This document shows positions 3,671 to 63,505 of a DNA stretch of 64,000 bases, in pieces. Position numbers and translations under genes: made by a program. The stretch comes from Alphaproteobacteria bacterium (GTDB lineage: Bacteria; Pseudomonadota; Alphaproteobacteria; UBA7887). The notes under the pieces were generated by a model. It worked only from the letters and a program-made list of their open reading frames with translations, was not told the DNA's origin and searched no databases. The stretch lies in NCBI GenBank assembly GCA_965216755.1, contig CBDCGL010000011.1, positions 3,040,001-3,104,000 on the forward strand. The letters are read 5' to 3'. Within the stretch, counting starts at the first letter, position 1; every line of letters starts with the position of its first letter.

Positions 3671-3763
3671 GTTCCGGTGACAGTTTACTAAATACACTAC
3701 ATTTTGTGCGCATATATTCCCAGGGCACACTATTTTGTGGTTCTAGTAATCTGTCACCGGAAC
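3671..3763. repeat. Dispersed inverted-repeat element, copy 1 (core 3675-3759, degenerate right arm)
   Basis: gttccggtgacagtttactaaatacac ... gtggttctagtaatctgtcaccggaac; 4 mismatches in 27 bp. Confidence 0.9.
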
Positions 3764-3778
3764 TACCACAACCGACGG

Positions 3779-4891
3779 CTAACCAACCGTCTGCGAAAGC
3801 CGCACACCAAGCACGTGGGCATCGCGCCCGATAACATGGCCAGACGATCCGGCGATCAACGGATCTGGCCCGTGCGCAATATGCGGGTTCCTGTTGGGGT
3901 AATCGAGCCGGCTCAAGAAATGCAACATGCAGTTGATGCGGGCGCGTTTCTTGTCTGAAGACTTGACGATTGTCCACGGTGCGTCAGCGGTGTCTGTGTA
4001 GAAAAACATCGCTTCTTTGGCTTCCGTATAGTCCTCCCACTTTTCAAGGGATGCTTGGTCGATGGGGCTCAGCTTCCATTGCTTCAGCGGATCTGTCTTG
4101 CGCGCCTGAAAGCGGCGAAACTGCTCGTCGCGTGTGACCGAAAACCAATATTTGAACAGCCGAATACCACTGTTGACCAACATCCGTTCCATTTGCGGAC
4201 ATTGGCGCATGAATTCCAAGTATTCGTTGGGCGAACAGAACTCCATCACCCGCTCGACGCCGGCACGATTGTACCAGGAGCGGTCGAAAAGAACGATCTC
4301 ACCGGCGGTTGGCAAATGCTCAATGTAGCGTTGAAAATACCACTGGCCCTGTTCCTGCTCGGTCGGTTTTTCCAAAGCGACGACGCGCGCGCCACGCGGA
4401 TTGAGGTGCTCCATAAACCTCTTGATGGTGCCGCCCTTGCCGGCCGCGTCGCGCCCCTCGAACAAAACGACGATCTTTTGCCCGGTTTCTTTGACCCAGC
4501 TTTGCACCTTGAGGAGTTCGGCCTGCAGTTCGCGTTTCCGCGCTTCGTAGATGGCGCGTTTCATGCGTGTTCGATAGGGATAGACGTCGCTTTGGAAATT
4601 CTCGCGTAGGCGCTGCGGATCATGGCGAATCTCAGCCAGAACATGCTGCACTTCGGCGCCATGGGCGTTCTCAAGCGCGGCTATGTCCCGTTTGGACTTA
4701 GACCGTCCCTTGGCAGCCGGCTTGCCGCGCGCCTTTGTGTTGCCGTTCGCACCCGCGTCAGCGCGTTGCTTCTTTTTCGGCGCGTCGGCTGTGTTCGCTT
4801 TTGTCGTCGCCGGTCGAACGGACTTGTCCGCCAGCTGCGTGATCTTCGCGCTCACGCCTGTATCGTTTGACAATTGATCATCTTGTGACAT
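3779..4891 (-). CDS. ppk2: Polyphosphate kinase 2
   Basis: FEGRDAAGKGG Walker A, LFDRSWYNRAGVERVM, PLKQWKLSP. Confidence 0.95.
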   Translation of the reverse strand: MSQDDQLSNDTGVSAKITQLADKSVRPATTKANTADAPKKKQRADAGANGNTKARGKPAAKGRSKSKRDIAALENAHGAEVQHVLAEIRHDPQRLRENFQSDVYPYRTRMKRAIYEARKRELQAELLKVQSWVKETGQKIVVLFEGRDAAGKGGTIKRFMEHLNPRGARVVALEKPTEQEQGQWYFQRYIEHLPTAGEIVLFDRSWYNRAGVERVMEFCSPNEYLEFMRQCPQMERMLVNSGIRLFKYWFSVTRDEQFRRFQARKTDPLKQWKLSPIDQASLEKWEDYTEAKEAMFFYTDTADAPWTIVKSSDKKRARINCMLHFLSRLDYPNRNPHIAHGPDPLIAGSSGHVIGRDAHVLGVRLSQTVG

Positions 4892-4971
4892 GGCTCGACT
4901 CGTTACATGGTCGGTTGACGGCGCGGCGTACCCGATCGCTTCGGCACGTCGCCCGCATCGCTATTGGTTAT

Positions 4972-5010
4972 TTCGTGAAGTTCATTAAATTTCATTAAAG
5001 TTCATTAAAT
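4972..5010. promoter_or_regulatory. 10-bp direct repeat array upstream of ppk2
   Basis: ttcattaaat ttcattaaag ttcattaaat, preceded by degenerate ttcgtgaag; period of about one helical turn. Confidence 0.5.
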
Positions 5011-5334
5011 CGGCCAGTTCAACGCGCGTCGCGCACGGTTGGGCAAAAAGATGCGTCCCGGCAGCCATGCGATTCGCTTTACCTGAGACGCGGGTGGCCG
5101 CACCGACATTGCTGTCGGCAATTCTAGCAATAACAACGCTTTATTTGCGACCCGGCCGATACCGCACCGGTTGATCCCAAATCTCCACTCACCCCTATGG
5201 CGACCGGGCGGCGTGTTACGGGGCATGGCGCCGTGGCGCCGGCACGCAATTCGGTGTGCTGGCGACGGCCGTCCGGTAACGGGGGCGGAGCTGCCCCGAT
5301 CGTCGGCGCCATCGGCATCTTGGAGGACCCGGCC

Positions 5335-5787
5335 ATGAACAAGCTTGCCGTTTGGGCGGTTGCCGTGGTGAGCGGCGCGCTTGCTGCGCCTGCCGCCGTC
5401 GATCGGTTCCTCGCCGCCGAGGACTGCGCCTTGTGTGCCCATCAACAGGTCTGCGCGCCGGAGACCTCGCTTGATGCCTGCGCGATTCAGGCGTTGCAGT
5501 TTTATGCCTGGCAGGGCGTGCAGGCGCGCACCCTGTCGGGCAATGATTTGGCCCGGTTTGTCGGCGAAACGCGCGTCGGCAAGATCGGTCGCAGTGTCGA
5601 TGTTGCGGTCTTCTTTTGGAAAGACAATGAGCCGCAAGACGGTGTCTTCGTCTTACTCGGCCACGTCGGCGCGGGCGACCAAGGCACAGTTATCATCGGC
5701 AAAAAGATGTTCTCCACCAGCTGCGTCTTCACCGACATTTGGGGTGCGCGCGGCTATGCAGAGATTGGTCAGCCCTATCGCAGCTAG
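5335..5787 (+). CDS. Hypothetical secreted protein
   Basis: GGAGG RBS before ATG 5335; signal-peptide-like N-terminus MNKLAVWAVAVVSGALAAPAA; followed by a terminator. Confidence 0.6.
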   Translation: MNKLAVWAVAVVSGALAAPAAVDRFLAAEDCALCAHQQVCAPETSLDACAIQALQFYAWQGVQARTLSGNDLARFVGETRVGKIGRSVDVAVFFWKDNEPQDGVFVLLGHVGAGDQGTVIIGKKMFSTSCVFTDIWGARGYAEIGQPYRS

Positions 5788-5839
5788 AACTCTCACGGAT
5801 CAACCTGGGTGACTCCCCTCCACCAAGTCACCCAACGCT

Positions 5840-5875
5840 GCGGGCGTGGACGCCCCGGGTCCACGCCCGCTTTTT
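5840..5875 (+). terminator. Rho-independent terminator
   Basis: 12-bp stem gcgggcgtggac/gtccacgcccgc followed by ttttt. Confidence 0.8.
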
Positions 5876-5905
5876 AGACAAGAATTAGAGGCGCGCGCCC
5901 ACGCT

Positions 5906-6553
5906 TCACCCGGTGGTTTGCGACCAAGCGCGCAAGCTCTCCAGGATCTTGGTCAAAATCGGTTCCATCGATGGACCCAAAGTTTCGTTGGCAATCGCTT
6001 GCTCAATCATCGATTCGATTTGCGGTAATGCTGCGACGACCATTTTGCCAAAAGCCGCTTTGCCGTCATCAGACAGACCCTGCACACCAGTGCCGATATC
6101 GTCAAACTTGGCCGCCAGACTGTCCAGTTCCGGTTGCACGGCCTCGGCGGTGCTGTCGACGCTTAGGCCGCTCAGCAAATTGGTCAAACCGCCGAGCGAA
6201 TCGGTCAGCTCCTGACCAAAATCGACGCCATTCGCGACCAACGCGGCGACTTGGTCGGTTGCGTCCGCGGTCGCCTGCGCGGCATCTTCAGCGACACCTT
6301 GAACCGAATCGGCGGCGTTTTCCGCCATGGTCTGGGTGGCGTCGACGGCGTCCTCGACCGCATTCTGTGTCGCCTCCGCGGCGTCTTCCGTTAATTCGGC
6401 GACCGACTCGACAGCCTGATCCGCCGCGCCGGCAATTTCATCGACTGCTTGATCGGTTTGTTCGGCCACATCCTGCTGTTCTTCGGGTCCTAAAAGGTAA
6501 TACCCAACCAAAACCACAACAACGACGACCAATAGGCCCGTAAGCCAACGCAT
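5906..6553 (-). CDS. Hypothetical membrane-anchored acidic, Ala-rich helical protein
   Basis: MRWLTGLLVVVVVVLVGYYLLG anchor, then 11-residue-like repeats (AEDAAEATQNA); GAGGGGAG RBS. Confidence 0.7.
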   Translation of the reverse strand: MRWLTGLLVVVVVVLVGYYLLGPEEQQDVAEQTDQAVDEIAGAADQAVESVAELTEDAAEATQNAVEDAVDATQTMAENAADSVQGVAEDAAQATADATDQVAALVANGVDFGQELTDSLGGLTNLLSGLSVDSTAEAVQPELDSLAAKFDDIGTGVQGLSDDGKAAFGKMVVAALPQIESMIEQAIANETLGPSMEPILTKILESLRAWSQTTG

Positions 6554-6720
6554 TGCACACTCCCCTCTTCTGTTTCGGGCCAGCCGCCAAGCCGGCGCCA
6601 GGCCAAATGCAACGTTAGTCCAAAGTCGGTCACAAGATGCGTGTTCCACGCCCCGCCGGACGGCGAATGGCGCCGCAAGGCGATGCCATGTGCTCAACTG
6701 ACCTCGGCGTCCGCCTCATA

Positions 6721-6760
6721 CGACACCGTCTTATCCGACACCGTCTTATCCGACATCGTC
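6721..6760. repeat. 15-bp tandem repeat (about 2.7 copies)
   Basis: cgacaccgtcttatc cgacaccgtcttatc cgacatcgtc. Confidence 0.75.
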
Positions 6761-7146
6761 GTCCAAGGTCGCTCTTTGCCACGCGCCATGCTTGCACGGT
6801 CAGCAACTTGGCGTACCCAATCACAACTCGCGCGGGTTGGCAAGATCGCCGGCGCTTCGAACGCGTGCTGTCATTTCCGACCGCGCGGCTCCCACCCTAG
6901 AGCAGTGTCCGACAATATTGAACCATTCTGCCGGAGCGCCAACGTCGCGCCGCGCCGCCCTTCGCGTGGATCGCCACGCCGGGCCGCAAACAGATCTGAT
7001 TCAATATCATCGGACACTGCTCTAGCTACCGAAGCGATCATGCACATATCCGTGTTCCTTGTCGCCAATGTGGACCATGATGATCGCCAAAGGGCGCGGA
7101 AAAGGGCATCAGGCCGAAAACAGGTCTCAAGTTAGCGGGCGGGACA

Positions 7147-8184
7147 CTATTTTGTTTGGTCTCCGGCGGTTATGCGCCGCGCGAGATCGAAAAAGCCGCG
7201 CTTGCGGTCCGAACTGATACGCCAATTGACCGGAACGCTTTGGTAGCCGCAGTCGAACGATTCGCCGTCCAACCGGTAATCGAAAAAACCCCAAGAGGCA
7301 AATTCGCTGACCGCCGCCAGGAAATTGTTGTCGGCTTCATCGAACCGGAAATGGTCGTCCTCGTTGAACAGGATCGGCATCGGCCGGTAGCCGGTCACCT
7401 GTCGGGTTTGGCGCACCATGGCGCGGATGGCCGCTGGCTGATCCACGCGATTTCCATGCAAGAGCACAAAGTCGCTGGCGGAGACCACGTTGCTTGTGGG
7501 GATCGTACCGCCGCCATAGCTGGTGCCGGCCAGCAAGCGTGCACCATCCCGTTCATGGCCCCGCACGCGCAAGATCAGTTCATGCACGCGCGCCGGCTTG
7601 AGAATCGGCTGTTCGTAACGGATGTCGCATTCATTGTTGATTTCGAGCAAGACGTGGCGGTAACGCTGCGCCGACAGCCACGCCACGGCATTGTCAACCG
7701 CTTGTACGATAGCGCCCTCGCTGGTGAAAACCCGTTCCTGGCCGAAATAGAACAGACCCAAGATGACGACCATGCCGAGATCGTCGGCGGCATCCAACAG
7801 GCGCGCCAGCCGCGCCAGATAGTCCGCGCGCAAATGGCCGTCCGGCGCGAAGGCCGAATTGGTCCAGGGCTGGGCCTTTGAATAGCCATAGGGACTGCCA
7901 CCTTGCAAATTCAGGGTGAAAGCACGCACGCCGTGGGCGGCCCAGCTCGGCATGGCGTCGATAAACGCGTTGGTGTTGCGGTCGGGATCCCAAATCCCCG
8001 TATCTGGATAGGCCCAAAGATGTCGGGTCGCCGGGTTGAGATCGTCAAATATCCCTTGAACCATGCGGGCGTTGAGCAACAACCCCTCAATCGGTCGACC
8101 CTGCCACGTAACGCCTGCGTATGTCGGTTGGCTGTTGACAAAAAAGCGCGCGCCGCGGATTTCCACGTGGGTTTTTCGGGTCAT
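7147..8184 (-). CDS. Uncharacterised glycoside-hydrolase-like TIM barrel protein (clan GH-A-like)
   Basis: LEINNEC (acid/base-like NE) and PILFNEDD (nucleophile-like E); GMVVILGLFY segment; start MTRKTH after GGGAGG. Confidence 0.6.
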   Translation of the reverse strand: MTRKTHVEIRGARFFVNSQPTYAGVTWQGRPIEGLLLNARMVQGIFDDLNPATRHLWAYPDTGIWDPDRNTNAFIDAMPSWAAHGVRAFTLNLQGGSPYGYSKAQPWTNSAFAPDGHLRADYLARLARLLDAADDLGMVVILGLFYFGQERVFTSEGAIVQAVDNAVAWLSAQRYRHVLLEINNECDIRYEQPILKPARVHELILRVRGHERDGARLLAGTSYGGGTIPTSNVVSASDFVLLHGNRVDQPAAIRAMVRQTRQVTGYRPMPILFNEDDHFRFDEADNNFLAAVSEFASWGFFDYRLDGESFDCGYQSVPVNWRISSDRKRGFFDLARRITAGDQTK

Positions 8185-8559
8185 GTCTGCGGCCTCCCGC
8201 TTACGCCGGTGCGTCGATATCACGCGTCGATTTCGGATCTTTGAGGTTTCATTGAAGATTCGCCCCAGTAACATAATCGTCTCAATGGTTTGCTAGAAGT
8301 TCTCCGTCATCGGTTGAGTCGAAATCGTGATCGTGCCAGCGACGACATTTGGTTACGCCTTGGCGCCGCTTAACCGTACACGCCGCGCCGCATAGAACGC
8401 CGTCGACACGCTAACAGCGTCGGCGGCGTCGCTCTCGCGGCACCCGGTGTGGCGTCGCGGGGGCCAGCCTTGCATCCGTGGCAGTTGTGCAAATCCTTCG
8501 AAAGCAGGCATTATCCGTGCCCCTGGGGCAGCGGACCATGATTGGTGCGGAGATCCAAT

Positions 8560-10485
8560 ATGACAATTGAAACTGAATGGCGCAGCTATGACGTGATCGT
8601 GGTCGGCTCCGGCGGCGCGGGCAGCGCCGCGGCCCATGCGGCGGCCGAGACCGGGGCCAAGGTGTTGGTCGTCGCCAAAGACCCGGTCGGTTGTTCCGAC
8701 ACCAAGATTGCCGAGGGTATTGTGACTGTGCGGGCCAGCGCGGAGGCCGACGATAGCGAAGACGCGCTTGCCGAGAATCTCCGTATCGCCGGCGGCGATC
8801 TACCGACGCCCGAAATCGCTGCTGCGTTTGCGCAAGATACCCAAGACGCCTACGACTGGATGCGGCGCCACGGCGTGCGCCCGGATGTCGATGATCGGAC
8901 GCATAAGCCGAAGGTGCTGCCGATTGCGCTTGGTGGTCACACCCACCGGCGCTCCGTTAGCCATCAAAACGGCGGCTTGGCGGTGGGCCATGCGGCGTGG
9001 AATGCGGTCGTCCAGGGCAAACGGATCGATTATTTGGAGGACGCATGGTTTCTCGATGTGATCACCGCGCCGGTGGGTGATCGCGGGGATGTGCGTGGCG
9101 GCATCGTCTACGACGCGGCGCGCGGTGTTTTTGTCGCGGTTCGGGCGCCGGCGGTGGTCATCGCCGCCGGTGGCTTGGGCACGATGTACTTCCCGAAAAC
9201 CGACACCATGCGCGGCAATACCGGCGATTCCTATGCCATTGCCGTGCGCGCCGGGGCCGATTTGGTTGATATGGAGCAGGTGCAGTTTTTGCCCTTTTGC
9301 ATGACCCATCCGCCGGCATATGAGGGATTATGCGCCGGCGAGCCCGTGACCGCCGGGTTTCTGGGTGTGCTGCGCGACAAAGACGGCAACGTGATACTGG
9401 ATAGCGTCATGTTGCGCACACGCGCCGAATGTTCCGCCGCGATTGTGCGCGCGGTCGCCGACGGGCGTGGCACGGAACGCGGCGGCTGCTATTTGGATTT
9501 GACCGGCAACGTCAAACTGCCGCGATCCGGCCGCTACTACGACCGATTTTTGCATACGTCATTAACCGGTATTATGGCCACGGTGCGCCAAGCCTGGGGG
9601 CGGAAGGCGGTCCGCTGCGAGGAAATGTGGGAAGTGCGACCGGGCGCCCACTACGCCATGGGCGGTGTGCGCGTAGATGCCGATGGGCGCGCCGCGCGTG
9701 ACGAAGGCGCGCGCGCCGTTGACGGCTTGTACGCGGCAGGTCAAGCCATGGGCGGCGTTTTCGGCGCCAATCGCTTGGGCTCGACATCGCTTTCGGAAGG
9801 GCCAATTTTTGGCGCGCGGGCGGGGCGCGCGGCGGCAGCGCGGGCACGGCAAACGCGCGCGGCTGCCGATGACGCGCCATTCGAAGCCAACCTGGCCAGC
9901 TATCGGTCGGTTCTTGGACGAACAGCCGACGCGGCCCCGGCACAGTTGGTCAAGCAGCTGCAGTCCGCCTGCTGGGAGGGCATAGGTCCGGCGCGAACCA
10001 AGGACGGCCTGGAGCGGTTTGTCGCGGCATTGGCCGACCTTCGCCAACGCGCCGATACCGCTGCTGTGTCCTCAGATGCGTTGTGGAACCAATCGTTTAT
10101 CGATTGGGTCGAACTGCGCAATATGCTCGACACCGCCGAAGCAGTGGCGCGTGCGGCCTATTCGCGCACGGCGTCGCTCGGCGCCCATATTCGGCTCGAC
10201 AGCCAGAAGACATCGACGGCCCTGGGCCACCCCTATTCCGTGATCGTGCGTCAGGGACCGAGCGATGCGATGATTGTGGCCCACGCGGCGCGCCAAAAGA
10301 CGCCATGGCAACGGCTGCTTCCCTATGTAATGGCGGATCGCAAACGCAAGGTCGTGCTGAAGGTCTTGCGTCTTTTGCCCGCAGCCTGGCAGGACCGTAT
10401 CTTGGAAAAACGCTATCGCAGCGTGATGGGGGAGATCAAACCGGCGCGGGCCGGTGATACGGTCGCTGACGGCGCCAATGCATGA
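8560..10485 (+). CDS. Succinate dehydrogenase/fumarate reductase-family flavoprotein (atypical)
   Basis: VVGSGGAG, AAGGLG, NTGD, DMEQVQF, HYAMGGV, GANRLGSTSL. Confidence 0.88.
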   Translation: MTIETEWRSYDVIVVGSGGAGSAAAHAAAETGAKVLVVAKDPVGCSDTKIAEGIVTVRASAEADDSEDALAENLRIAGGDLPTPEIAAAFAQDTQDAYDWMRRHGVRPDVDDRTHKPKVLPIALGGHTHRRSVSHQNGGLAVGHAAWNAVVQGKRIDYLEDAWFLDVITAPVGDRGDVRGGIVYDAARGVFVAVRAPAVVIAAGGLGTMYFPKTDTMRGNTGDSYAIAVRAGADLVDMEQVQFLPFCMTHPPAYEGLCAGEPVTAGFLGVLRDKDGNVILDSVMLRTRAECSAAIVRAVADGRGTERGGCYLDLTGNVKLPRSGRYYDRFLHTSLTGIMATVRQAWGRKAVRCEEMWEVRPGAHYAMGGVRVDADGRAARDEGARAVDGLYAAGQAMGGVFGANRLGSTSLSEGPIFGARAGRAAAARARQTRAAADDAPFEANLASYRSVLGRTADAAPAQLVKQLQSACWEGIGPARTKDGLERFVAALADLRQRADTAAVSSDALWNQSFIDWVELRNMLDTAEAVARAAYSRTASLGAHIRLDSQKTSTALGHPYSVIVRQGPSDAMIVAHAARQKTPWQRLLPYVMADRKRKVVLKVLRLLPAAWQDRILEKRYRSVMGEIKPARAGDTVADGANA

Positions 10486-11180
10486 AAGTTGAGCTGATCA
10501 GAGTGCGTGACGGCCAGGCACAAGCCGTCGCCTATGACTATCGACCACGTGTCGACGGCGAACGACCGATGGCCTTGGACGTGCTGTTACAGGCCCAAGC
10601 GACCACTTTCCCAGATCTCGCCTATCGCTATGGCTGCCGCAACCGCACATGTGGCATCTGCACGATCGATATCAATGGTCGGCCGCGGATCGCCTGCCGC
10701 GCACGGGTTCGCGAAGGTGATCGATTGAGTGCGCCGGCGACCTTGCCGGTGCTGCGCGACATGGTGTCGCGGCGCGATGGTATTGCGCGCCAGCTGCGTG
10801 GCCGTTTGCCCGATGGTGTGCGTGGCAACGATTTGAACACGGCGGCGCCGGCCGACTATCATGCCTTGACCGCCTGCATCGAGTGCTATGCATGCCTGGA
10901 CAATTGTCCCATGCATGCGCGTAATTTCGACAATGGCGCGGAACAACGCGACGCGGCCGATGCCTATCGGTGGGGCAATCCGTTTTCATTGCTCAAACTG
11001 CAACGCCTGCGTTTGGATCCGGTCGCGACGCCGGCCGAGAAAGCGGCGGCGTTGGAAGCGGCGGTTGATTTGGGCCTTTCGGTCTGTCGCGACTGCCCGG
11101 GTTGCAAATGCGGCGTCGGTATCGACTTGAAACGCAAAGTGATTAAGCCATTGGTCGACACGGCCTTTGCCGACGTTTGA
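10482..11180 (+). CDS. SdhB/FrdB-like iron-sulfur protein (atypical)
   Basis: [2Fe-2S] motif YGCRNRTCGIC...AC, CIECYACLDNCP, CRDCPGCKC; ATGA overlap with the flavoprotein gene. Confidence 0.85.
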   Translation: MKVELIRVRDGQAQAVAYDYRPRVDGERPMALDVLLQAQATTFPDLAYRYGCRNRTCGICTIDINGRPRIACRARVREGDRLSAPATLPVLRDMVSRRDGIARQLRGRLPDGVRGNDLNTAAPADYHALTACIECYACLDNCPMHARNFDNGAEQRDAADAYRWGNPFSLLKLQRLRLDPVATPAEKAAALEAAVDLGLSVCRDCPGCKCGVGIDLKRKVIKPLVDTAFADV

Positions 11181-11306
11181 TTGCGAAATTGCGCTCTATT
11201 CGGCGGCCGCGCCTTTTTGATGCCGCCAGGGGCCCGTATAACCGGCCGACCAATCGGGGGGTATTTCGCACGGCCGCGGGTCGTGATGGGTGACGCGCCT
11301 GGCTTA

Positions 11307-11405
11307 GGTATTTCGGTGACAGTTTACTAAATACACAATATATTGCGTATTATATGATATCTGATGCCTTACTTTGTGTATTTAGTAAACTGTCACCGAA
11401 ATACC
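11307..11405. repeat. Dispersed inverted-repeat element, copy 2 (core 11314-11398)
   Basis: Perfect 32-bp inverted repeat ggtatttcggtgacagtttactaaatacacaa / ttgtgtatttagtaaactgtcaccgaaatacc. Confidence 0.95.
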
Positions 11406-11503
11406 AAAATGTGGTCGCTTGCGTTTGTTCGCCGACACACGGTCGATTACACTGGCCGTGATGTGTCATTGACTTGTGAACACTCGGAATCGGCCTGCTC
11501 GTC

Positions 11504-12649
11504 ATGTCCGCGACCGCGTCTACTCAGCACACTATACTTGCCATGCAAGCCTATCTGCGCGATGGCACAGCGCGCGCGCAAAAACTGGCCAATCGCGGAC
11601 CGATCCGTTTTGGCGCGGACGGCGCGCTCGATACAGCGATCACGGACGCCTATTGGCAATACGGCTTTTACATTTTCGAGGGCGTGCTTGGCGCCGACGA
11701 GTTGGCTGATATCGAGGCTGATTTGTTCGACATTCAGGCCCGTTTGCCGAAGAACAAAGGCGCCAAAGTCGATGCCCAGGGGCGGCCCGCGATTGGGGTC
11801 GATTGTCGGGCGCCGACCCTGTTTTGGTCGAAACCATTAGGTGATCCGTTCGGCGGTACCGATCTGGCCAATGGCCGTCATCCGGTGAAAATGCACGAAC
11901 CTGAGGCCGCCGTTGACGCGCCGAGCGACATTGTTTATCTGATCCTGGGCTCGATGCAGTTTTCAGATGCGTGTCTACGGTTTTACGGCCATCCGCAATT
12001 GTTGGCTGTGGCGGCGGCAATCAACGGTGAGGATTTTGTACCGTTTACCGAGGCGCTGTTTATCAAAGAACCTGGTCTGGGCGCGTCCGTAGCGTGGCAC
12101 CAAGACGGCGTCACCCATTGGGAGAGTCCAAGCTGGGACCAAGGCACCCATGGATTCAATTTCATGGGGCAGCTATATGGCTGCGCGGCGGCCAATGGTG
12201 TGTGGGTTGTGCCCGGTTCGCACAAGTGGGGCAAAGTTGATATCGCGGCCATGGTCGCCCAAGCCGGCAGCGAACGGTTACCGGACGCGGTGCCGCTGAT
12301 TTGCGCGCCCGGTGACGTTGCCATGTGCAATCGGCAGGTGCTGCATGGCTCATTTGCCAACAACAGCCCGGATTGGCGGGTCACGGTCAACGCCGGTTTT
12401 CACCGGCGCGCGTCCGTGTTGGGTGTTAAAGGCGGCGGCGTTCACAATGCGCCGGCGGTCTATGACGCGGCGCGTATTGAGGAACGGTCGCGCTGGGTCG
12501 GTTACGCTATCGATGCACGCCATCAACGCTTTCCCGACGAAACGCCTTATGTCTATAAGCCGCACGCCGATGCAGGTGAAACGTTCCACTGGGACGCCGG
12601 CCTCAAAGCGCGGATGAAAGACTATAACTTGCTCGACTTGAGCATCTGA
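11504..12649 (+). CDS. Phytanoyl-CoA dioxygenase (PhyH) family Fe(II)/2-oxoglutarate dioxygenase
   Basis: WHQDG, NGVWVVPGSH, LHGSFANNS...R. Confidence 0.88.
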   Translation: MSATASTQHTILAMQAYLRDGTARAQKLANRGPIRFGADGALDTAITDAYWQYGFYIFEGVLGADELADIEADLFDIQARLPKNKGAKVDAQGRPAIGVDCRAPTLFWSKPLGDPFGGTDLANGRHPVKMHEPEAAVDAPSDIVYLILGSMQFSDACLRFYGHPQLLAVAAAINGEDFVPFTEALFIKEPGLGASVAWHQDGVTHWESPSWDQGTHGFNFMGQLYGCAAANGVWVVPGSHKWGKVDIAAMVAQAGSERLPDAVPLICAPGDVAMCNRQVLHGSFANNSPDWRVTVNAGFHRRASVLGVKGGGVHNAPAVYDAARIEERSRWVGYAIDARHQRFPDETPYVYKPHADAGETFHWDAGLKARMKDYNLLDLSI

Positions 12650-12675
12650 ACCGCGTGCTGATCGCATAACAAAAG

Positions 12676-13527
12676 TTACGCCGGGCCTTGGGGGAGTGCG
12701 GCGAAGCAACCCTTGACCCAATCGATGACAGCGCGGGTCGGCGGATCATGTTTCAAATGGGATTGCACGAGCAACCACACGCCGCGCGGTTGCGGCAATT
12801 TGGTTATGTGAAAGGCATCGTCGTCCAGTAGCCCCGCGCACATGAAGTTGGGCAAAATGCCCGCGCATCGGCGCGACTCAATGAGTTTCTTGGCCACCAG
12901 CAGGTTCTTGGTCATGCATCGCGCATGCTGATGCAGCCCGGCCTGTTTGAGATATTGAGATTCCGGGGTCGCATCAAGGTCTTGCGGATAGGCCCACACC
13001 AGTTCGCCGGTTTGCGGCTTCACTTCCGCCGGTTCGAATAAATACAACGTCAGGTCCGCCAGCTTGGACATGATGAAGTCGCCTTTGTCGGGCTTTTGTA
13101 AGCGCACGGCGATATCCGCTTCCCAGCGCGAAAAGTTGACATTTTGTGTCGACGCCAAGAGCGCTAGGGACAATCCTGGTTGTTCGGCGAGAAATGGTGC
13201 GACGTTTGGTGCCAGAACCTCCGTGGCAATCGAATCGGTGGTGGCGATCCGGCGGTGGCCGATCCACTCCGGATAATCGTCACCGATCTTGGAAATCCGT
13301 TCGGCCTGGTCCTCCATCCTGGCGGTCAGCGCCACCAACTCTGCGCATTGCGCGGTGGGTCGCCGGACACCATCGACGGCCTCAAACAAGGTCAGCCCCA
13401 AATCTTGTTGCAAGCGGCCGAGCCGTCGCGCCACTGTGGTTTCATTCATATGCAAGCGGGCGCCGGCGGCGGCATAGCTGCCGGATTCGAAAACGGCACG
13501 CGCGACCCGCAGATCATCCCAATTCAT
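12676..13527 (-). CDS. LysR-family transcriptional regulator
   Basis: MNWDDLR...GSYAAAG...TVARRL HTH; EADIAVR. Confidence 0.92.
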   Translation of the reverse strand: MNWDDLRVARAVFESGSYAAAGARLHMNETTVARRLGRLQQDLGLTLFEAVDGVRRPTAQCAELVALTARMEDQAERISKIGDDYPEWIGHRRIATTDSIATEVLAPNVAPFLAEQPGLSLALLASTQNVNFSRWEADIAVRLQKPDKGDFIMSKLADLTLYLFEPAEVKPQTGELVWAYPQDLDATPESQYLKQAGLHQHARCMTKNLLVAKKLIESRRCAGILPNFMCAGLLDDDAFHITKLPQPRGVWLLVQSHLKHDPPTRAVIDWVKGCFAALPQGPA

Positions 13528-13665
13528 CCATCAAGTATCGCCCCATCCTGCAAATTTGCAACCGCCCGTCGCAACAACACTGCGTGTGTGTCGTGTCTGG
13601 GTCGGCTAGGACTGTGGCCACATCACGCTCACCACGTTGCCAACTGACAATCACGGGAGTTAACG

Positions 13666-14181
13666 ATGGTTGGAAAATTCATTTGTGGATCCGTCATTAG
13701 CGGGCTATGTGTATTTGGCGCGCCTGTTTTGGCTGATGACGGCAGTGCCACGCCGGAAGGCGTGGTCGCCAAGGTCCAAGAAGCCGCGGCACTTTTGGCC
13801 ACGCAAGGCGCATCGGCCCTTGATGTGCTGCGTGATCCAACATCCGCCTTTACCTGGAAGGACACGTACATATTCGTCGTCGACTGCGCGGCCGACCGGG
13901 TTTTGTCCAACCCGGCATTTCCGGAACGTCAGGGCCGTGATATCAAGCAACATGTCGACTATAATGGCAAGCAATACGGCCAGGAACTGTGCGACACGGC
14001 GCAACAACCGGGTGGCGGCTGGGTCGAATATGTTTGGCTGAAGCCAGGCGGTGACACGCCGCTGCGCAAAATCAGTTTCGTCATGTCTGTCGATGGTCAG
14101 CCCTATCAATTGGGCGCGGGCATTTACAATCAGACCATCTCACTCAATGACGTTGCCGCACTTACCGATAGCCATCAATAA
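13666..14181 (+). CDS. Stand-alone secreted single Cache domain protein
   Basis: Signal peptide; FTWKDTYIFV, GGGWVEYVWLKPG...KISFV...GAGIY. Confidence 0.8.
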   Translation: MVGKFICGSVISGLCVFGAPVLADDGSATPEGVVAKVQEAAALLATQGASALDVLRDPTSAFTWKDTYIFVVDCAADRVLSNPAFPERQGRDIKQHVDYNGKQYGQELCDTAQQPGGGWVEYVWLKPGGDTPLRKISFVMSVDGQPYQLGAGIYNQTISLNDVAALTDSHQ

Positions 14182-14233
14182 TTTCGCCGTGACGCGACGC
14201 TGTCACGCCATGGCCTGATCGCGAGTCAAACCG

Positions 14234-15055
14234 ATGACCATTCTCAACGTGCCCACATGGCGCAAAGCCGCCGACACCTATGACGCCGCCGCCGACCATT
14301 TCGATGACGCCCCTTTGGCATTCTGGGATCGACATGGGCGGCGCGCGGTCGAAGGGATGGGTTTGTGCGCCGGCGATCGTGTGTTGGACGTCGGCTGCGG
14401 CACAGGCGCGTCGGCCTTGCCGGCGGCGCTGGCGGTTGGGCCGCACGGGCACGTCACGGGGGTGGACGTTGCCGCGAACATGCTGGCGCGCGCACGCAAG
14501 CGCGCGCGTGCCGGCGGCTTTGAGAACGTGACGTTCGTCCAAGCCGACATGGGGGCGACCGGGTTTGCAGACGCCAGCTTTGACGCCACCATCAGCGTGT
14601 TTTCGATCTTTTTTGTCGCCGATATGGCCGCGCAGGTTGCCGAGCTGTGGCGCCTGCTGCGGCCCGGCGGGGCCCTGGCCGTAACGGTGTGGGGGCCACA
14701 TGCGTTCGCGCCCGGTGCCGCGATTTTTGACGAAGAGCTGCGCTGCTTGCGGCCGGACCTAGCGTCAACCGCGCCGGCTCCTTGGCAGCTCTTGACAACG
14801 ACCGATAGGCTGCGGGCGCTACTTCGCGATGGTGGCGTGTCCGCCGCGGAGATGTGGCCGGCGCCCGACGATCAACCGCTCGCGTATCCGGCGGCGTTCT
14901 GGACCATCGCCATGGGGTCGGGTTTTCGTTGGCAAATCGAGCAGCTGACATCGGCGGAGCGTTCGCAGCTTCGCGAACGCGTGGTTGGCCGGCTGAGCGC
15001 GCGCGGTGTCAGGGCCATAGACACCAGCGCCATTCACGCCATCGCACGAAAGTGA
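14234..15055 (+). CDS. Class I SAM-dependent methyltransferase
   Basis: VLDVGCGTG, VTGVD, LRPGG. Confidence 0.88.
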   Translation: MTILNVPTWRKAADTYDAAADHFDDAPLAFWDRHGRRAVEGMGLCAGDRVLDVGCGTGASALPAALAVGPHGHVTGVDVAANMLARARKRARAGGFENVTFVQADMGATGFADASFDATISVFSIFFVADMAAQVAELWRLLRPGGALAVTVWGPHAFAPGAAIFDEELRCLRPDLASTAPAPWQLLTTTDRLRALLRDGGVSAAEMWPAPDDQPLAYPAAFWTIAMGSGFRWQIEQLTSAERSQLRERVVGRLSARGVRAIDTSAIHAIARK

Positions 15056-15077
15056 GTTGTGGCGGGATCAAAGATGG

Positions 15078-15211
15078 GTGTTACGGTGGTTACGGTGACA
15101 GTTTACTAAATATACCATATGTTGTGACTCACTGCTAAAGCCTACAACATACGGTATATTTAGTAAACTGTCACCGTAACTAGTAAACTGTCACCGTAAC
15201 CACCGTAACAC
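15078..15211. repeat. Dispersed inverted-repeat element, copy 3 (core 15093-15176) with duplicated right arm
   Basis: Long arms; tagtaaactgtcaccgtaac occurs twice (15161-15200); outer 9-bp units gttacggtg/caccgtaac reiterated. Confidence 0.95.
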
Positions 15212-15352
15212 ACCGTAGTCGGGCCGGTCGTCAGGCAGCATGTGCCCTTTGCGGGCTGGAATAGTGCGGTACAAAGCGATACCAAGATAGAGACCGCACG
15301 AGTCGGCGATGCCCGATAAGACCGCGTCAAACGGTCCACATGAGACACTAAC

Positions 15353-16840
15353 TCATAGCATAGAATTCAGTATGTAAAATATGCTTGCCGATAACACGGC
15401 TGTGGCCGGCACGGTGATCACCCAAGCCGCGACAATGGTCAAGAAATGCGCGCGGCGCACAAGCTTGCGGTGGCGTATGACCTCCTTACCCGGCAGTTTT
15501 TCGCCGTTGTCGGCGGCAAAGCCGCGGCGCGCGATCATTTCGCGGCGCCGCCGGCTGCGTTTGGTGTACTGTTCGCGGAAAAAGCCCACGCCGAAAACCG
15601 CCCCGACAGCGATATGTGTCGAGCTTACCGGTAGCCCGAGCCACGAGGCGATAATCACCGTGATCGCCGCGGATAAGGCGACACAATACGCCCGCATCGG
15701 GTTCATTTTTGTGATTTTGACGCCGACCATTCGGATTAACTTTGGGCCGTAGAGAAACAGGCCCAGGCTTATGCCGAACGCACCGATCAACATAATCCAG
15801 TTCGGAATGGCGACTTTGGCGGCAACTTCGCCAAACTGTGCGCTATGTAGAATCGCGGCCAACGGCCCGATCGCATTGGCCACATCATTGGCGCCATGAG
15901 CAAAAGACAGAAGGGCGGCCGAACAGATCAGCGGAATGTGAAACAACCGGCGCAGCGACTGGTTGCGGTTTTCCATGCCGTCGGACTGGGAACGGATCAG
16001 TGGATGCACGGAGACCCATGCAAAAACGAAGGTCGTGACGGTGATGATGGCAACCATCGCGGAGCCAGGCTGCCAGATTCGTTTGAGCCCCTTGATGGCC
16101 AGATAACAAGCAAACGCGGCCGCCATTATCGCGATCAGCAAGGGGATCCAACGCCGCGCCGCCGCGATCTTATCGTCTTGATAGATTAGATTGATTTTGA
16201 TGAAAGCGAGAAACGCGGCCGCGATCAGGCCACCCAGCAGGGGGGAAATGACCCAGCTTGCCGCAATCGCGCCCATGGTCGTCCAATTGACCAACTGAAA
16301 GCCGACCGCGGCGATGCCCGACCCCATGACACCACCGACCACCGCGTGGGTCGTCGAAACCGGGGCGCCAAGATACGTCGCCAAATTGACCCAAAGTGCC
16401 GACGAGATCAAGGCCGCCATCATCGCCCAAACGAATGTGTCGTTATCGCCAACTTGCGCGGGATCGATGATGCCTTTCGAAATGGTGGACACAACGTCGC
16501 CGCCGGCCAGCATGGCGCCGGCGCTTTCAAATATAACCGCGATGATCAGCGCGCCGACCATCGTCAGCGCTCGTGCGCCAACCGCCGGACCAACATTGTT
16601 GGCGACGTCATTTGCGCCGATATTGAGCGCCATATAGCCGCCCAAGATAGCCGCCACGACAACGATCGCGGCGTCGGACGCGACACCGGCGTAAATCCCT
16701 GCGACGACAGCGGAAAGGCCCAGAAAGATCAGTGCCAGGCCGTGCGAGAAGAACTCTTGTGACAGACGGCGGGTGGCCGCCTCGACATGGACCAGTTTTT
16801 CGAGATCCTTGTCGAGCGATCGTTTTGTCACGCCGACCAT
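15353..16840 (-). CDS. pit: PiT family inorganic phosphate transporter
   Basis: Two GANDVAN signatures, PVSTTH and PVSSTH. Confidence 0.93.
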   Translation of the reverse strand: MVGVTKRSLDKDLEKLVHVEAATRRLSQEFFSHGLALIFLGLSAVVAGIYAGVASDAAIVVVAAILGGYMALNIGANDVANNVGPAVGARALTMVGALIIAVIFESAGAMLAGGDVVSTISKGIIDPAQVGDNDTFVWAMMAALISSALWVNLATYLGAPVSTTHAVVGGVMGSGIAAVGFQLVNWTTMGAIAASWVISPLLGGLIAAAFLAFIKINLIYQDDKIAAARRWIPLLIAIMAAAFACYLAIKGLKRIWQPGSAMVAIITVTTFVFAWVSVHPLIRSQSDGMENRNQSLRRLFHIPLICSAALLSFAHGANDVANAIGPLAAILHSAQFGEVAAKVAIPNWIMLIGAFGISLGLFLYGPKLIRMVGVKITKMNPMRAYCVALSAAITVIIASWLGLPVSSTHIAVGAVFGVGFFREQYTKRSRRRREMIARRGFAADNGEKLPGKEVIRHRKLVRRAHFLTIVAAWVITVPATAVLSASIFYILNSML

Positions 16841-16892
16841 GGTCGCTCCCCTGAACGCTTTACGGTTTGATTCCGGGCCCTCATTTCGACCG

Positions 16893-17396
16893 TTAGCAGG
16901 CTATTGGAATCGTTTCGTATTGGGCACTTGCGCAAGCGCAGACAGTGTCGGCAAATTGAAGCAGCGCCGCGCCCTTGTCGTTCGCCACGCGGGCGAAGAG
17001 ATCGGCAAGCTCGGCGTCGTCGGCACGGGCTGCCGCAGTGTCGAGATCAAGCCATTCCAGGCGGCGCATCGGTTTCTCTTTCCACTTCACGAGATGTTGC
17101 ATAACGAGAAGGGGATAAACAAAGACCTGACATTGAACTTGATAGCCTTGGCGCATGCGTTTGGCATAACGATACGTACCAATGGTCGTATCCGCGACGG
17201 TGCCGACAACGCCGGCCTCTTGCTTGGCTTCGCGGCGCGCCGCTTCGTGCAGGCCGCGCTGACCGTCGGGCCAGCCTTTTGGCAACACCCAGCGGCCACG
17301 TCGCCGCGATGTAATCAGCAGGATTTCGATGTTGCCACGCACCAGAACAAACGGCAACGCGGCCGCTTGCTGTACCGACTTACTCAGAAAGGCCAC
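16893..17396 (-). CDS. NUDIX hydrolase
   Basis: QAAALP, ILLITSR, WVLPKGW...AARREAKQEAGV Nudix box; start uncertain (GTG 17396). Confidence 0.85.
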   Translation of the reverse strand: MAFLSKSVQQAAALPFVLVRGNIEILLITSRRRGRWVLPKGWPDGQRGLHEAARREAKQEAGVVGTVADTTIGTYRYAKRMRQGYQVQCQVFVYPLLVMQHLVKWKEKPMRRLEWLDLDTAAARADDAELADLFARVANDKGAALLQFADTVCACASAQYETIPIAC

Positions 17397-60512: not shown

Positions 60513-60604
60513 AATTCGGTGACAGTTTACTAAATACACCAAATATTGTATGCTGCAGTAATAATATACGAAATATAGTGTATTTAGTAAACTGTCACCG
60601 AATT
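60513..60604. repeat. Dispersed inverted-repeat element, copy 4 (core 60517-60600)
   Basis: Perfect 27-bp inverted repeat aattcggtgacagtttactaaatacac / gtgtatttagtaaactgtcaccgaatt. Confidence 0.95.
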
Positions 60605-60920: not shown

Positions 60921-61029
60921 ATGTGTTTCCCAGCCTTGATGGTTTGCCGCGATCATGTGCCATCATACGCGTCGTTTGGCCCGTTGGTCATCACGAGTCG
61001 CAAACCGAAGAAATCGAGGGGAAGCCGCC

Positions 61030-62622
61030 ATGGCCGTGCGCCGCTTGCGTTTTTGGGGCTGGGGATATGAAGACGAACCAATCGACGCGGCCGAGGCGGC
61101 ACGCGTCGTCCAACATGTGCAACGGCGCCTGGCCGCACCTGATCTTGAGGAAGACCCGGCGCCACGCCTAGAGGATATCGAATTGTCGGCGCCGCGCTTA
61201 TCGCCACCGGCGAGCTTGCGCGACATCTGCGACACGGCACCGATCGAACGGGTCAGCCATACCTATGGCAAATCATTCCCCGACTATGTGCGAACGCTGT
61301 CGCGCGACTTCTCGGTCGCGCCGGACGTGGTCGCCTATCCACGTCATGAAGCCGATATTGTCGACCTGCTGGCGTGGGCCAGCGACACCCATGCGGCCGT
61401 GATCCCCTTCGGCGCCGGGTCGTCGGTGGTCGGCGGCGTCGAAGCCGCCGTTGGCGACGGTTATCGCGGCGTTATCACGATTGACTTGCGCCAGCTGGAC
61501 CAGGTTCTCGAAGTCGACGAAACCTCGCGCGCGGCGCGCATTCAGGGCGGCGTGCTGGGCCCGCATATGGATGCTCAGCTCAAGCCGCATGGCTTTTCCA
61601 TGCGCCATTTCCCGCAATCCTATCAATTCTCGACCTTGGGCGGCTGGATCGCGACGCGGTCGGGTGGTCATTACGCCAGTCTGTACACCCATATTGACGA
61701 CTTCGTCGAATCGCTACGCGTGGTCACGCCGGCGGGCGTCATCGAAAGCCGGCGCCTGCCGGGATCCGGCGCCGGGCCGAGCCCAGACCGTTTCTTCATT
61801 GGCTCCGAGGGCACTTTGGGCGTTATTACCGAAGCGTGGATGCGGGTGCAGAACCGACCGACGCACAAGGCCGCGGCGTCGATGTGGTTCTATGAATATC
61901 AACAAGCGTCGCGCGCCGTCCGGGCGATTGCCCAGGCCGGGCTTTATCCATCCAATTGCCGGTTGATTGATGCCGACGAAACCGCCATGACCCTGGCCGG
62001 CGATGGCAGCCGCCACCTGTTGGTGTTGGGCTTCGAATCGGGCGACCACCCAGTCGACGCGTGGATGGCACGCGCCATCGAATGTTGCCAGGATTTCGGC
62101 GGCGTCCGCGACGACTCCGAAGCGGCCGGCCAGTCCACGGGCGCCGGCGGTTGGCGCACCGCGTTCATCCGCGCGCCTTTCTATCGCAGCCACCTGATCG
62201 CCCGCGGCATCATTCACGACACGTTCGAGACGTCGATTCCGTGGGATCATTTCCCGGAATTCCATGCCCGTGTGAAAACCGCCACGGCTCAAGCCATCCA
62301 TGACGTGACCGGACGCGACGGCACCGTGACCTGCCGCTTTACCCATGTCTATCCTGATGGTCCGGCACCCTATTTCACGTTTCATGCGGTTGGCAAAAAG
62401 GGTGCTCTTCTCGAGCAATGGCGGGACCTGAAGCAGATCGCCTCGGATATACTATTGAAAGAGGGTGGCACGATTACCCATCATCATGCGGTCGGCCGCG
62501 ACCACCGACCCTGGTATGATCAGCAAAGACCGGACTTGTTCGCCGACGCCGTCCAAGCCGCCAAAACCAAGCTTGATCCCAAGGGTGTTCTCAACCCGGG
62601 CGTTTTGATCGATCCGGCTTAA
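61030..62622 (+). CDS. FAD-linked oxidase, alkyl-DHAP synthase (AgpS)-like
   Basis: FWGWG, PFGAGSSVVGG, HFPQS..FSTLGGWIATRSGG, GSEGTLG, THHHAVG, LNPG. Confidence 0.85.
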   Translation: MAVRRLRFWGWGYEDEPIDAAEAARVVQHVQRRLAAPDLEEDPAPRLEDIELSAPRLSPPASLRDICDTAPIERVSHTYGKSFPDYVRTLSRDFSVAPDVVAYPRHEADIVDLLAWASDTHAAVIPFGAGSSVVGGVEAAVGDGYRGVITIDLRQLDQVLEVDETSRAARIQGGVLGPHMDAQLKPHGFSMRHFPQSYQFSTLGGWIATRSGGHYASLYTHIDDFVESLRVVTPAGVIESRRLPGSGAGPSPDRFFIGSEGTLGVITEAWMRVQNRPTHKAAASMWFYEYQQASRAVRAIAQAGLYPSNCRLIDADETAMTLAGDGSRHLLVLGFESGDHPVDAWMARAIECCQDFGGVRDDSEAAGQSTGAGGWRTAFIRAPFYRSHLIARGIIHDTFETSIPWDHFPEFHARVKTATAQAIHDVTGRDGTVTCRFTHVYPDGPAPYFTFHAVGKKGALLEQWRDLKQIASDILLKEGGTITHHHAVGRDHRPWYDQQRPDLFADAVQAAKTKLDPKGVLNPGVLIDPA

Positions 62623-62641
62623 CGCGAAAGGGAGATACATC

Positions 62642-63415
62642 GTGGCACAATCAGCCGTTCGCCGTTCTGCCGTCAGCACCATGAGCGATGCTGAATGGGA
62701 TACCCGCGTCGCCTTGGCCGCCACCTATCGGGTGTTCGCCGAAATGGGCATGGACGATTTGATCTACACCCACATTTCGGCGCGTCTGCCCGACGCACCG
62801 GAGCACTTCCTTCTGAACCCATTCGGCCTGATGTTTGAGGAAGTGACGGCGTCGAACTTGGTCAAGGTCGATCTGGAGGGCACACCGGTAGACCCGGATT
62901 CGGCGCCCGTCAATCGCGCCGGCTTCGTGATCCACAGTGCCTTCCACGCCGGATGCCATCGGGCCAATTGCGTGATTCATCTGCATTCGGAAGCGGGCTG
63001 CGCCGTAGCGGCGCAAAAGGATGGCTTGCTACCCTTATCGCAATATTACTTTTTCAGCGGTGGCGGCGTCGCCTATCACGCCTATGAGGGGCTGGCGCTG
63101 GACGATGATGAAAAGGCGCGGCTTGTCGACGATTTGGGTGATAAGAACTGGATGGTGCTGCGCAACCATGGCCTGTTGACTGTCGGCCACACAGTCGCCG
63201 CGGCGTTCTTCCATATGTACAATTTGGAACGCGCCTGTCGGGTCCAGGTGGCCGCCCGCGGCGGTGGCGCCGCGATCGAACTGCCGGCCAAAACGGTTCA
63301 GGAGAAGACCCAGGCCCAGCGGCCGGTCAGTCTAGACCTTGGCGAATGGGGCCAACGGGAGTTGGCGGCCTGGATGCGCAAGTTGGACCGCGCCGGCAGC
63401 GACTACCGTCAATAG
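62642..63415 (+). CDS. Class II aldolase/adducin family protein
   Basis: IYTHISAR, NPFGLMFEEVTASNL, IHSAFH, IHLHS, LRNHGLL. Confidence 0.92.
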   Translation: MAQSAVRRSAVSTMSDAEWDTRVALAATYRVFAEMGMDDLIYTHISARLPDAPEHFLLNPFGLMFEEVTASNLVKVDLEGTPVDPDSAPVNRAGFVIHSAFHAGCHRANCVIHLHSEAGCAVAAQKDGLLPLSQYYFFSGGGVAYHAYEGLALDDDEKARLVDDLGDKNWMVLRNHGLLTVGHTVAAAFFHMYNLERACRVQVAARGGGAAIELPAKTVQEKTQAQRPVSLDLGEWGQRELAAWMRKLDRAGSDYRQ

Positions 63416-63421
63416 TGAATT

Positions 63422-63505
63422 CGGTGACAGTTTACTAAATACGCCATATCTAGTGTATGCACTAGGCATACCGCAATATGTAGCGTATTTAGTAAACTGT
63501 CACCG
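63422..63505. repeat. Dispersed inverted-repeat element, copy 5
   Basis: Perfect 23-bp inverted repeat cggtgacagtttactaaatacgc / gcgtatttagtaaactgtcaccg. Confidence 0.95.

Follow-up and report, generated by a model that had tools for sequence, protein, structure and literature searches.

The 64,000-nucleotide window analyzed here (C11:3040001-3104000, that is, positions 3,040,001 to 3,104,000 of contig CBDCGL010000011.1, our C11) belongs to an alphaproteobacterial genome of 5.0 Mb, 59% GC and 11 contigs (GenBank assembly GCA_965216755.1; G000 in our labeling), and carries five copies of a dispersed inverted repeat. The repeat is an element of the type of repetitive extragenic palindromes (REPs) or REP doublets forming hairpins (REPINs), and it belongs to a single-copy gene for a REP-associated tyrosine transposase (RAYT), with which it forms a REPtron arrangement. 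By every available sequence criterion, its loop is a bipartite operator, under selection, for NrdR, the nucleotide-sensing repressor tied to the promoters of ribonucleotide reductase (RNR) genes. The REP/RAYT identity, the motif, the selection acting on it, its spacing and its position are established by the results below. The best explanation as a whole, to which we give a probability of roughly 0.45, is a RAYT-associated REP whose loop would be an NrdR operator acting as a clamp dependent on deoxynucleoside triphosphates (dNTPs). A preceding sequence-only reading of the window, which had proposed that a dispersed repeat recruits NrdR, is partly supported and survived every in-silico refutation test that it had named.

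The repeat and the boxes in its loop

The element is bounded by a 19-nt arm, GGTGACAGTTTACTAAATA, and by the reverse complement of that arm. Matches to the arm at up to three mismatches numbered 10 in the window, compared with 0 in 100 shuffles, and there were 130 matches in the genome, of which 98 were exact. Pairing of the arms yielded 61 elements, most of which measure 82 bp (39) or 83 bp (14), the other eight varying between 77 and 89 bp, and left eight arms unpaired: two extra partial arms beside a complete element, four from decayed copies including window copy 1, and two that look like chance matches in rRNA-like sequence. The arm lengthens to 24 nt (RTTWC + GGTGACAGTTTACTAAATA) by a flank that covaries between the two sides, position -2 agreeing in 49 of the 61 copies compared with 26.3 expected; among the 122 flanks, ATTTC occurred 34 times, ATTAC 20 times and GTTTC 15 times, beside other forms. 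Since the flanks are inverted complements rather than direct repeats, there is no target-site duplication, and a classical MITE (miniature inverted-repeat transposable element) with such a duplication was ruled out. The loop between the arms is 44-45 nt long. When four window copies were folded as single-stranded DNA, the arms paired as stems of 23-29 bp, giving hairpins of -27.6 to -34.3 kcal/mol (z -10.6 to -13.6). No longer element sharing these ends was found in the genome, and a literature search for the arm sequence returned only unrelated primer matches. In contigs of X1 and X3 compared with window positions 1-20000, ends at the arms were seen, as expected of a repeat.

The loop motif was analyzed on 52 unique 82/83-mers, and thus on 104 boxes, with one identical duplicate (C11:2590948) and the eight paired elements of other lengths left out of the set. 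Counted from each outer end, positions 1-19 are the nearly invariant arm, and positions 19-34 read A-Y-A-C-n-A-n-A-T-n-T-n-G-y-r-n. Information in this 16-bp box peaks exactly at C4 (103 of 104 boxes), A6 (94), A8 (95), T9 (98), T11 (82) and G13 (98), and these are the six positions described as conserved in NrdR boxes (PMC13584703); positions 5, 7, 10 and 12 hold about 0.2-0.4 bits, within a range of 0.0-0.4 bits for these positions and the spacer taken together. All six positions are intact in 60 of the 104 boxes. The same source describes C4 and G13 as critical for NrdR binding, A6 and T11 as important, and an AT-rich center as needed, and it states that the NrdRs of E. coli and S. coelicolor recognize boxes from other organisms (PMC13584703). 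C4 and G13 are kept in both boxes of 45 of the 52 elements, and the AT share from C4 to G13 averages 0.81, reaching the level of at least 63% expected of an NrdR operator in 98 of the 104 boxes. The sequence-only reading had placed ten such 16-mers in the five window copies, at start-to-start distances of 31, 31, 30, 30 and 30 bp, with C4, A8 and G13 present in all ten and CnAnATnTnG complete in seven. We reproduced all of this, and the C4/A8/G13 pattern holds over the larger set, where it extends to A6, T9 and T11.

The two boxes abut the arms, and boxes plus spacer (46-47 bp) make up the whole loop and one base of each arm. Two boxes are described as required by NrdR, with spacers usually of 15-16 bp, although the four NrdRs tested bind at 14-17 bp and 24-27 bp is also accepted (PMC12051234). 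Among the 53 elements of 82 or 83 bp, 39 have a spacer of 14 bp and the remaining 14 one of 15 bp, which places all of them within the 14-17 bp range and the larger group at its weaker edge. The sequence-only reading had assigned a box pair to every element; this is true of 43 of the 61 paired elements, in which both boxes score at least 8 bits in the operator model described below, and not of the other 18, which lack a good pair. These 43 comprise 34 of the 39 82-mers and 9 of the 14 83-mers but none of the eight elements of other lengths, so that box content and element length are linked, in agreement with the proposal that the boxes explain the fixed length of the element. Two copies of 80-81 bp (C11:229829-229908 and 1519252-1519332) have perfect arms around a common, different loop without boxes, and three further copies of 77-78 bp are also box-less; the arms can therefore persist without boxes. 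Conversely, good box pairs were found in three copies with decayed or missing arms, at 3676-3758 of the window, C11:3558949 and C11:2870897 (31.5, 25.6 and 22.7 bits), which hints that boxes may be kept independently of arms, three copies being too few to conclude this.

The boxes were scored with a position weight matrix (PWM) derived from the 400 bp upstream of nrdJ in 27 relatives, in which de novo expectation-maximization recovered the NrdR box. The matrix rests on 48 sites and contains no element or own-genome sequence; three partial nrdJ loci (L075, L077 and matches without loci) were not used. Element boxes had a mean score of 14.0 bits, compared with 14.4 bits for the training sites and -16 ± 7.7 bits for shuffled loops at the same positions, and 98% of them exceeded the 99th percentile of the shuffled loops. 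The information profiles of the element boxes and of the nrdJ matrix of the relatives correlated with r = 0.92 over positions 4-13.

The genome has the protein that such operators would serve. A single nrdR gene is present and intact (TIGR00244, 174 bits), its product retaining the zinc ribbon, Asp15 and Arg17 and matching solved NrdR structures (E 1e-39); a search of the genome yielded no other ATP-cone protein. Three large-subunit genes and one small-subunit gene for RNR were identified, and no class III RNR was detected. The nrdJ-like gene is preceded by two boxes, 31 bp apart, with the same complete core as in the elements, and upstream of the class I nrd operon there is at least one NrdR-type box. 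In the latter region (C11:1812697-1813297), three close-set 9-mers, which we take to be of the DnaA-box type, stand beside the NrdR-type box, and this arrangement suggests dual control of class I RNR by NrdR and DnaA. The third large-subunit gene (C11:3537781-3539472) encodes Ribonuc_red_lgN and lgC domains without an ATP-cone, and no NrdR-type box was found in the 450 bp upstream of it.

When the genome was scanned for tandem sites with a spacing of 29-33 and no box below 7 bits, 70 distinct sites were obtained, 47 of which lie in paired elements. Five more touch an arm, three in decayed copies and two in shifted registers. Elements account for all of the 16 highest-scoring sites; rank 46 falls to the native nrdJ operator and rank 50 to the class I site. 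A strict tandem core (two complete cores 20-22 nt apart) occurred 23 times in this genome and 0-9 times in each of 400 genomes of the same class, a tally that takes in the unpublished G266 (three matches) and G067 (one match). A second genome with the same phenomenon was searched for among the 400 and rejected. The maximum of nine, in G216, consists of identical copies of one longer repeat, which is probably an insertion sequence rather than a counterpart of the present case, and G345, G293 and G039 were rejected as parallel cases because they contain unrelated single sites. Among the tandem sites outside the elements, one at C11:920930-920977 (locus L130; 24.6 bits, spacing 32, rank 44 of 70) lies 48 bp upstream of the gene for DNA polymerase III alpha (dnaE), which diverges there from a PNPOx gene, and may be a genuine additional member of the NrdR regulon.

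Conservation of the boxes was then compared with what DNA structure or recent copying would leave. Compared across the loop, from the one arm's side to the other's, box 1 and box 2 gave 212 identities at their variable positions, with 200.5 ± 9.2 expected (z = 1.25), and the excess was confined to box positions 2 and 5, adjoining the arm. Within boxes, complementary positions were no more frequent than expected (24 compared with 28.4 for positions 5-12, and 23 compared with 36.5 for positions 7-10). On these grounds we rejected both a hairpin that continues into the loop and a separate small hairpin in each box, and the lack of covariation argues for a protein motif rather than a hairpin. Recent copying was rejected as well. 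Over the 30 free positions of the 82-mers, the 741 pairs had a mean identity of 11.54, compared with 11.42 in a column-shuffled null, and only one sibling pair was found, at 29/30; rough birth-death arithmetic (about 1.5% arm mismatch, 60 copies) predicts tens of near-identical pairs under recent copying. Mutation has thus saturated the loops, in a star-like pattern, without eroding the arms and the six box positions, which points to purifying selection, or to repair biased to these positions, acting on each individual copy.

The RAYT gene and same-arm elements in other taxa

One Y1_Tnp gene was found in the genome (34.9 bits, cut-off 23), outside the window at C11:3428737-3429405. Its 223-residue product has an HVH motif and the conserved tyrosine and aligns to E. 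coli TnpArep (PDB 4ER8, E 1.6e-5); against the NCBIfam model for REP-associated tyrosine transposases, NF047646, it scored 68.1 bits, below the cut-off of 80. The gene is flanked by two elements, of which one ends 29 bp before the start codon and the other begins 18 bp after the stop codon. A RAYT gene flanked by its repeat is described as a REPtron (PMC3333891, PMC3337134), and a single RAYT-type Y1 transposase flanked by two copies marks the repeat as REP/REPIN-type and not as a classical MITE. The single-copy Y1 HUH transposase of RAYT type, the flanking repeats and the many extragenic palindromes (58 of the 61 paired copies lie outside our open reading frame calls) all agree with a REP system. 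Two features depart from it. There is no hairpin in the inter-REP spacer, and at the foot of the palindrome neither the GTAG tag that is described as required of REPs (PMC3333891) nor its form CGTC (PMC3733652) is present, the flank reading RTTWC.

The same arm pair was found in metagenome-assembled genomes (MAGs) labeled Betaproteobacteria, Burkholderiaceae, Methylococcales, Geminicoccaceae and Alphaproteobacteria, where the loops range from about 10 to 57 nt. It was not found in the 40 relatives searched (22 from other genera of the same family, none from the same genus), and relatives have RAYT homologues of 48-58% identity without these arms. In the alphaproteobacterial MAG G042, a RAYT gene of 68% identity is enclosed by two single arms in inverted orientation, some 730 bp from each other (contig C48; locus L097:661-1393), and this IS-like (insertion sequence-like) unit may represent the family in its autonomous form. 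Since this RAYT works with box-less loops, RAYT is unlikely to be the reader of the boxes. In the betaproteobacterial family, a fixed extension of the arm corresponds to the outer half of the box, and there are no full boxes; the full boxes of the present genome may have grown from such a pre-existing half-site.

Two further observations concern the arrangement of copies. In a betaproteobacterial MAG, 81-bp elements are clustered, three in 2.6 kb (L009, VGHK01000017.1, 3105-5709) and two in 0.8 kb (L012), unlike the dispersed copies of the present genome. Extra partial arms occur in tandem, 20-42 bp past a complete element, at window positions 15177-15195 and in G041:C9, G041:C14, G043:C7, G043:C12 and G045:C269, and could have been left behind when RAYT cut and rejoined the DNA, or by slippage.

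Roles for NrdR at the elements and competing explanations

It is quite probable that NrdR carrying dATP and ATP binds the elements in their duplex form. Some fifty copies with a paired NrdR-type site, remote from the genes that NrdR usually regulates, suggest a second job for the protein on repeats, and we consider such a second role likely. In the explanation that we favor, the loop would have been turned, in this lineage, into a complete bipartite NrdR operator held in each copy by selection. An NrdR tetramer with dATP and ATP would bind the duplex of about 45-50 elements, and since boxes and spacer span everything between the arms, it would occupy the whole loop. It would also bend the loop sharply, a kink of about 90° at each box being described for the S. 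coelicolor NrdR-DNA complex (PMC12051234). The bound element would thereby be bent, its arms would be brought together and extrusion of the hairpin would be prevented, so that dNTP status would set whether an element is a clamped duplex or is extruded as a hairpin and handled by RAYT. The RAYT gene itself might be gated, given the element that ends just ahead of its start codon. Among the roles considered for NrdR on the elements, such clamping or gating ranks first, and we put it forward tentatively. More doubtful is the fuller version, in which NrdR was recruited as a nucleotide-sensing structural partner of the REP/RAYT system: some 50 loops would switch with dATP/ATP between clamped duplex and free hairpin, the dNTP pool would be coupled to the activity of the REP/RAYT system or to the structure of the chromosome where genes end, and the origin-proximal array would feed back on RNR by titrating NrdR.

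Several results weigh against this explanation. Four NrdRs tested in vitro had a 2- to 13-fold lower affinity for a 14-bp spacer, which 39 of the 53 elements have, than for one of 15 bp (Table 5 of PMC12051234), T11 is kept in only 79% of the boxes (82 of 104), and the boxes with all six positions number only 60. The sites are away from promoters, where NrdR operators of RNR operons lie, 40 of the 61 elements being convergent and one divergent. Box pairs were absent from the same-arm elements of five other genomes (0 of 16 complete elements) and from same-arm elements in metagenomes (0 of 21, on 16 contigs), which indicates that the RAYT/REP system has no need of NrdR and weakens an obligatory architectural role. 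A promoter scan upstream of RAYT gave one site, on the wrong strand, and none that was promoter-like on the RAYT strand, so that gating of the RAYT gene itself is weakly founded. Finally, almost no recent transposition is visible, which leaves a gate on mobilization little activity to act on.

The placement of the copies bears on two of the competing explanations and was determined from our own crude map of open reading frames (3792 calls, 83% coding). Of 61 elements, 40 are in convergent regions, 17 lie between genes on the same strand, 3 overlap a call and 1, the element upstream of RAYT, is in a divergent region; the background of 1677 intergenic regions of at least 90 bp comprises 318 convergent, 892 same-strand and 467 divergent ones. 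Most copies lie 5-30 bp past a stop codon. The sequence-only reading was thus right that most copies are not in promoter positions. The distance of copies to the GC-skew minimum (3.24 Mb) averages 936 kb, compared with 1213 ± 89 kb for uniform placement (null fraction 0.001), and that to the RAYT gene averages 964 kb (null fraction 0.0025). Elements are denser at 2.5-4.0 Mb of C11, a region that holds the RAYT gene (3.43 Mb) as well as the GC-skew minimum, taken to mark the origin, and the two explanations of the clustering are inseparable.

That the motif serves some reader other than NrdR, whether RAYT or an unknown protein, or only preserves, between CAC and GTG, an AT-rich loop that can bend, is unlikely, but it survives best among the alternatives. 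The outer half-box (ACAC.A.AT) continues the arm and is fixed in the betaproteobacterial family that has no full boxes, the dominant spacer falls one bp short of the usual 15-16 bp, and the case for NrdR at the elements is one made from sequence. Nevertheless, the inner half-box, which lies outside any stem, is conserved too (T11, and G13 in 98 of the 104 boxes), the profile fits the independently learned NrdR matrix position by position, no covariation points to structure, and the 68%-identical RAYT of G042 works with loops that have no boxes.

Next comes the possibility, which we consider distinctly unlikely, that some 50 strong operators form a decoy array, titrating NrdR and thereby setting or buffering the repression of RNR and possibly of dnaE, with the REP as the vehicle; as a corollary, copies near the presumed origin would rise in dosage after replication initiation. 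The element sites do outnumber, and mostly outscore, the native operators identified (nrdJ, class I nrd and the site upstream of dnaE), positions after stop codons would avoid interference with promoters, and the copies are nearer to the GC-skew minimum than under uniform placement, although proximity to RAYT accounts for this clustering about equally well and the origin is placed by GC skew alone. However, each site would be only about 2% of the sink, so that selection on single copies should be weak, yet the six positions are kept nearly everywhere, and titration gives no reason for boxes that exactly fill the loop.

Improbable on present evidence is a roadblock or insulator, in which NrdR, according to dNTP status, would stop RNA polymerase reading through between convergent genes or act as a topological barrier. 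The excess of convergent copies over the background and their closeness to stop codons would suit it, the strong hairpin would form in RNA as well, and REPs and BIMEs (bacterial interspersed mosaic elements) are reported as terminators, mRNA stabilizers and supercoil insulators (PMC3333891). But a location at 3' ends is typical of REPs generally and may reflect tolerated insertion sites only, the five window copies have no T-run after the arms, and there is no evident reason for termination to track dATP/ATP. The last alternative, that the boxes are meaningless leftovers of one founder, can be set aside: some common sequence is expected of one family, but interleaved positions are saturated while six are kept, which would need a mutation rate alternating base by base, 98% of the boxes exceed the 99th percentile of shuffled loops, and two fixed positions both reaching at least 8 bits are expected at about 1.5e-7 (calculated from the 1859 windows that reach 8 bits in 4.85 Mb), compared with 43 of 61 observed.

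The closest analogue is BIME-1 of E. coli, elements of which are also named RIP or RIB. Both systems have two inverted arms, a linker with a site for a host DNA-bending protein, many extragenic copies and a Y1 transposase (TnpArep/RAYT). In BIME-1, the site in the L linker between inverted REPs is described as one for integration host factor (IHF) (PMC3333891), and the proposed clamp would share this architecture with a nucleotide sensor in place of IHF. The candidate protein differs accordingly, NrdR being a nucleotide-sensing repressor tied to RNR promoters and IHF a nucleoid protein. Moreover, the L linker is described as well conserved (PMC3333891), whereas here conservation is limited to six positions in each box, amid otherwise saturated sequence; the site consists of two parts that take up the loop in full, and no GTAG tag is present.

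The REPIN-RAYT system of Pseudomonas fluorescens SBW25 is similar in its inverted REPs with a spacer, in its flanked single-copy RAYT, in the mutual specificity described for RAYT and repeat, and in that its spacers are described as all different from one another (PMC3337134). The spacers of SBW25 are said there to keep a hairpin, whereas the loop here shows no covariation and keeps a protein motif. In the four folded copies the arms pair with each other, and the RAYT of the present genome falls below the NF047646 cut-off. Like the canonical NrdR operators of nrd promoters, the elements have two 16-bp boxes with the six positions, an AT-rich center, a spacer within 14-17 bp and the core of the genome's own nrdJ operator; unlike them, they occur in about 45-50 copies away from promoters and nrd genes, mostly have a spacer of 14 bp rather than 15-16 bp, and are framed by perfect 19-nt inverted arms. 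The Correia elements of Neisseria are MITEs with an internal IHF site, and the datA locus titrates DnaA. The former resemble the present repeat as small dispersed inverted-repeat elements with a host-factor site, and the latter as sites outside promoters that titrate a replication-linked regulator, but the proteins, element families and taxa are other ones, and neither involves NrdR or a RAYT.

The sequence-only reading had called the system possibly undescribed. NrdR sites in a repeat are indeed unreported as far as we found, our literature search, which did not extend to supplementary data, giving no link of NrdR to repeats; the element carrying them, by contrast, is a RAYT-associated one of REP type, akin to BIME-1 with its IHF site. 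What is new is a spacer that keeps a transcription-factor operator, REPs with a host-factor site and REPIN spacers that all differ (described in PMC3337134) being known already. NrdR has been treated as RNR-specific, and its box pairs are used for regulon prediction and have been proposed as targets for drug screens, whereas most strong tandem sites of this genome are in REP loops at gene ends and selected copy by copy. If NrdR binds them, it would be the second host factor built into REPs, after IHF in BIME-1, and the first that senses a metabolite; the repeat would then offer a ligand-controlled handle on the long-standing question of REP/REPIN function and a natural case of large-scale amplification of a transcription-factor site. 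Even without NrdR binding, the sites would be false positives in scans for NrdR regulons beyond RNR promoters.

The five window copies and their surroundings

Copy 1 (3671..3763, 83-bp core 3676-3758) has an exact left arm and a decayed right arm, and its boxes at 3694-3709 and 3725-3740, with a 15-bp spacer, sum to 31.5 bits (rank 17 of 70). On its two sides a gene for a PAS histidine kinase (590-3406, plus strand) and one for PPK2 (3779-4891, minus strand) converge. Copy 2 (11310..11402, 83-bp core 11315-11397) has two exact arms, boxes at 11333-11348 and 11364-11379 with a 15-bp spacer, and a DNA hairpin of -29.1 kcal/mol (z -13.6); it stands between same-strand genes, a Fer2_3 gene ending 134 bp before it and a PhyH gene starting 106 bp after it. 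Copy 3 (15089..15195, 82-bp core 15094-15175) has boxes at 15112-15127 and 15142-15157 with a 14-bp spacer, is followed by the extra partial right arm at 15177-15195, and lies between convergent genes for a methyltransferase and a PHO4 transporter. The 14-bp spacer recurs in copy 4 (60513..60604, 82-bp core 60518-60599; boxes 60536-60551 and 60566-60581), where convergent genes for a hexapeptide transferase and a cupin end 17 bp and 12 bp away, and in copy 5 (63418..63509, 82-bp core 63423-63504; boxes 63441-63456 and 63471-63486), which has a convergent gene end 7 bp away on each side, the left gene encoding a class II aldolase. As the sequence-only reading had stated, no nrd gene is among the nine neighbors scanned (histidine kinase, PPK2, Fe-S protein, PhyH, methyltransferase, PHO4 transporter, hexapeptide transferase, cupin and aldolase). 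An Rfam scan of the window matched only two tRNAs, whose genes are on the minus strand at 19059-19131 and 30738-30811.

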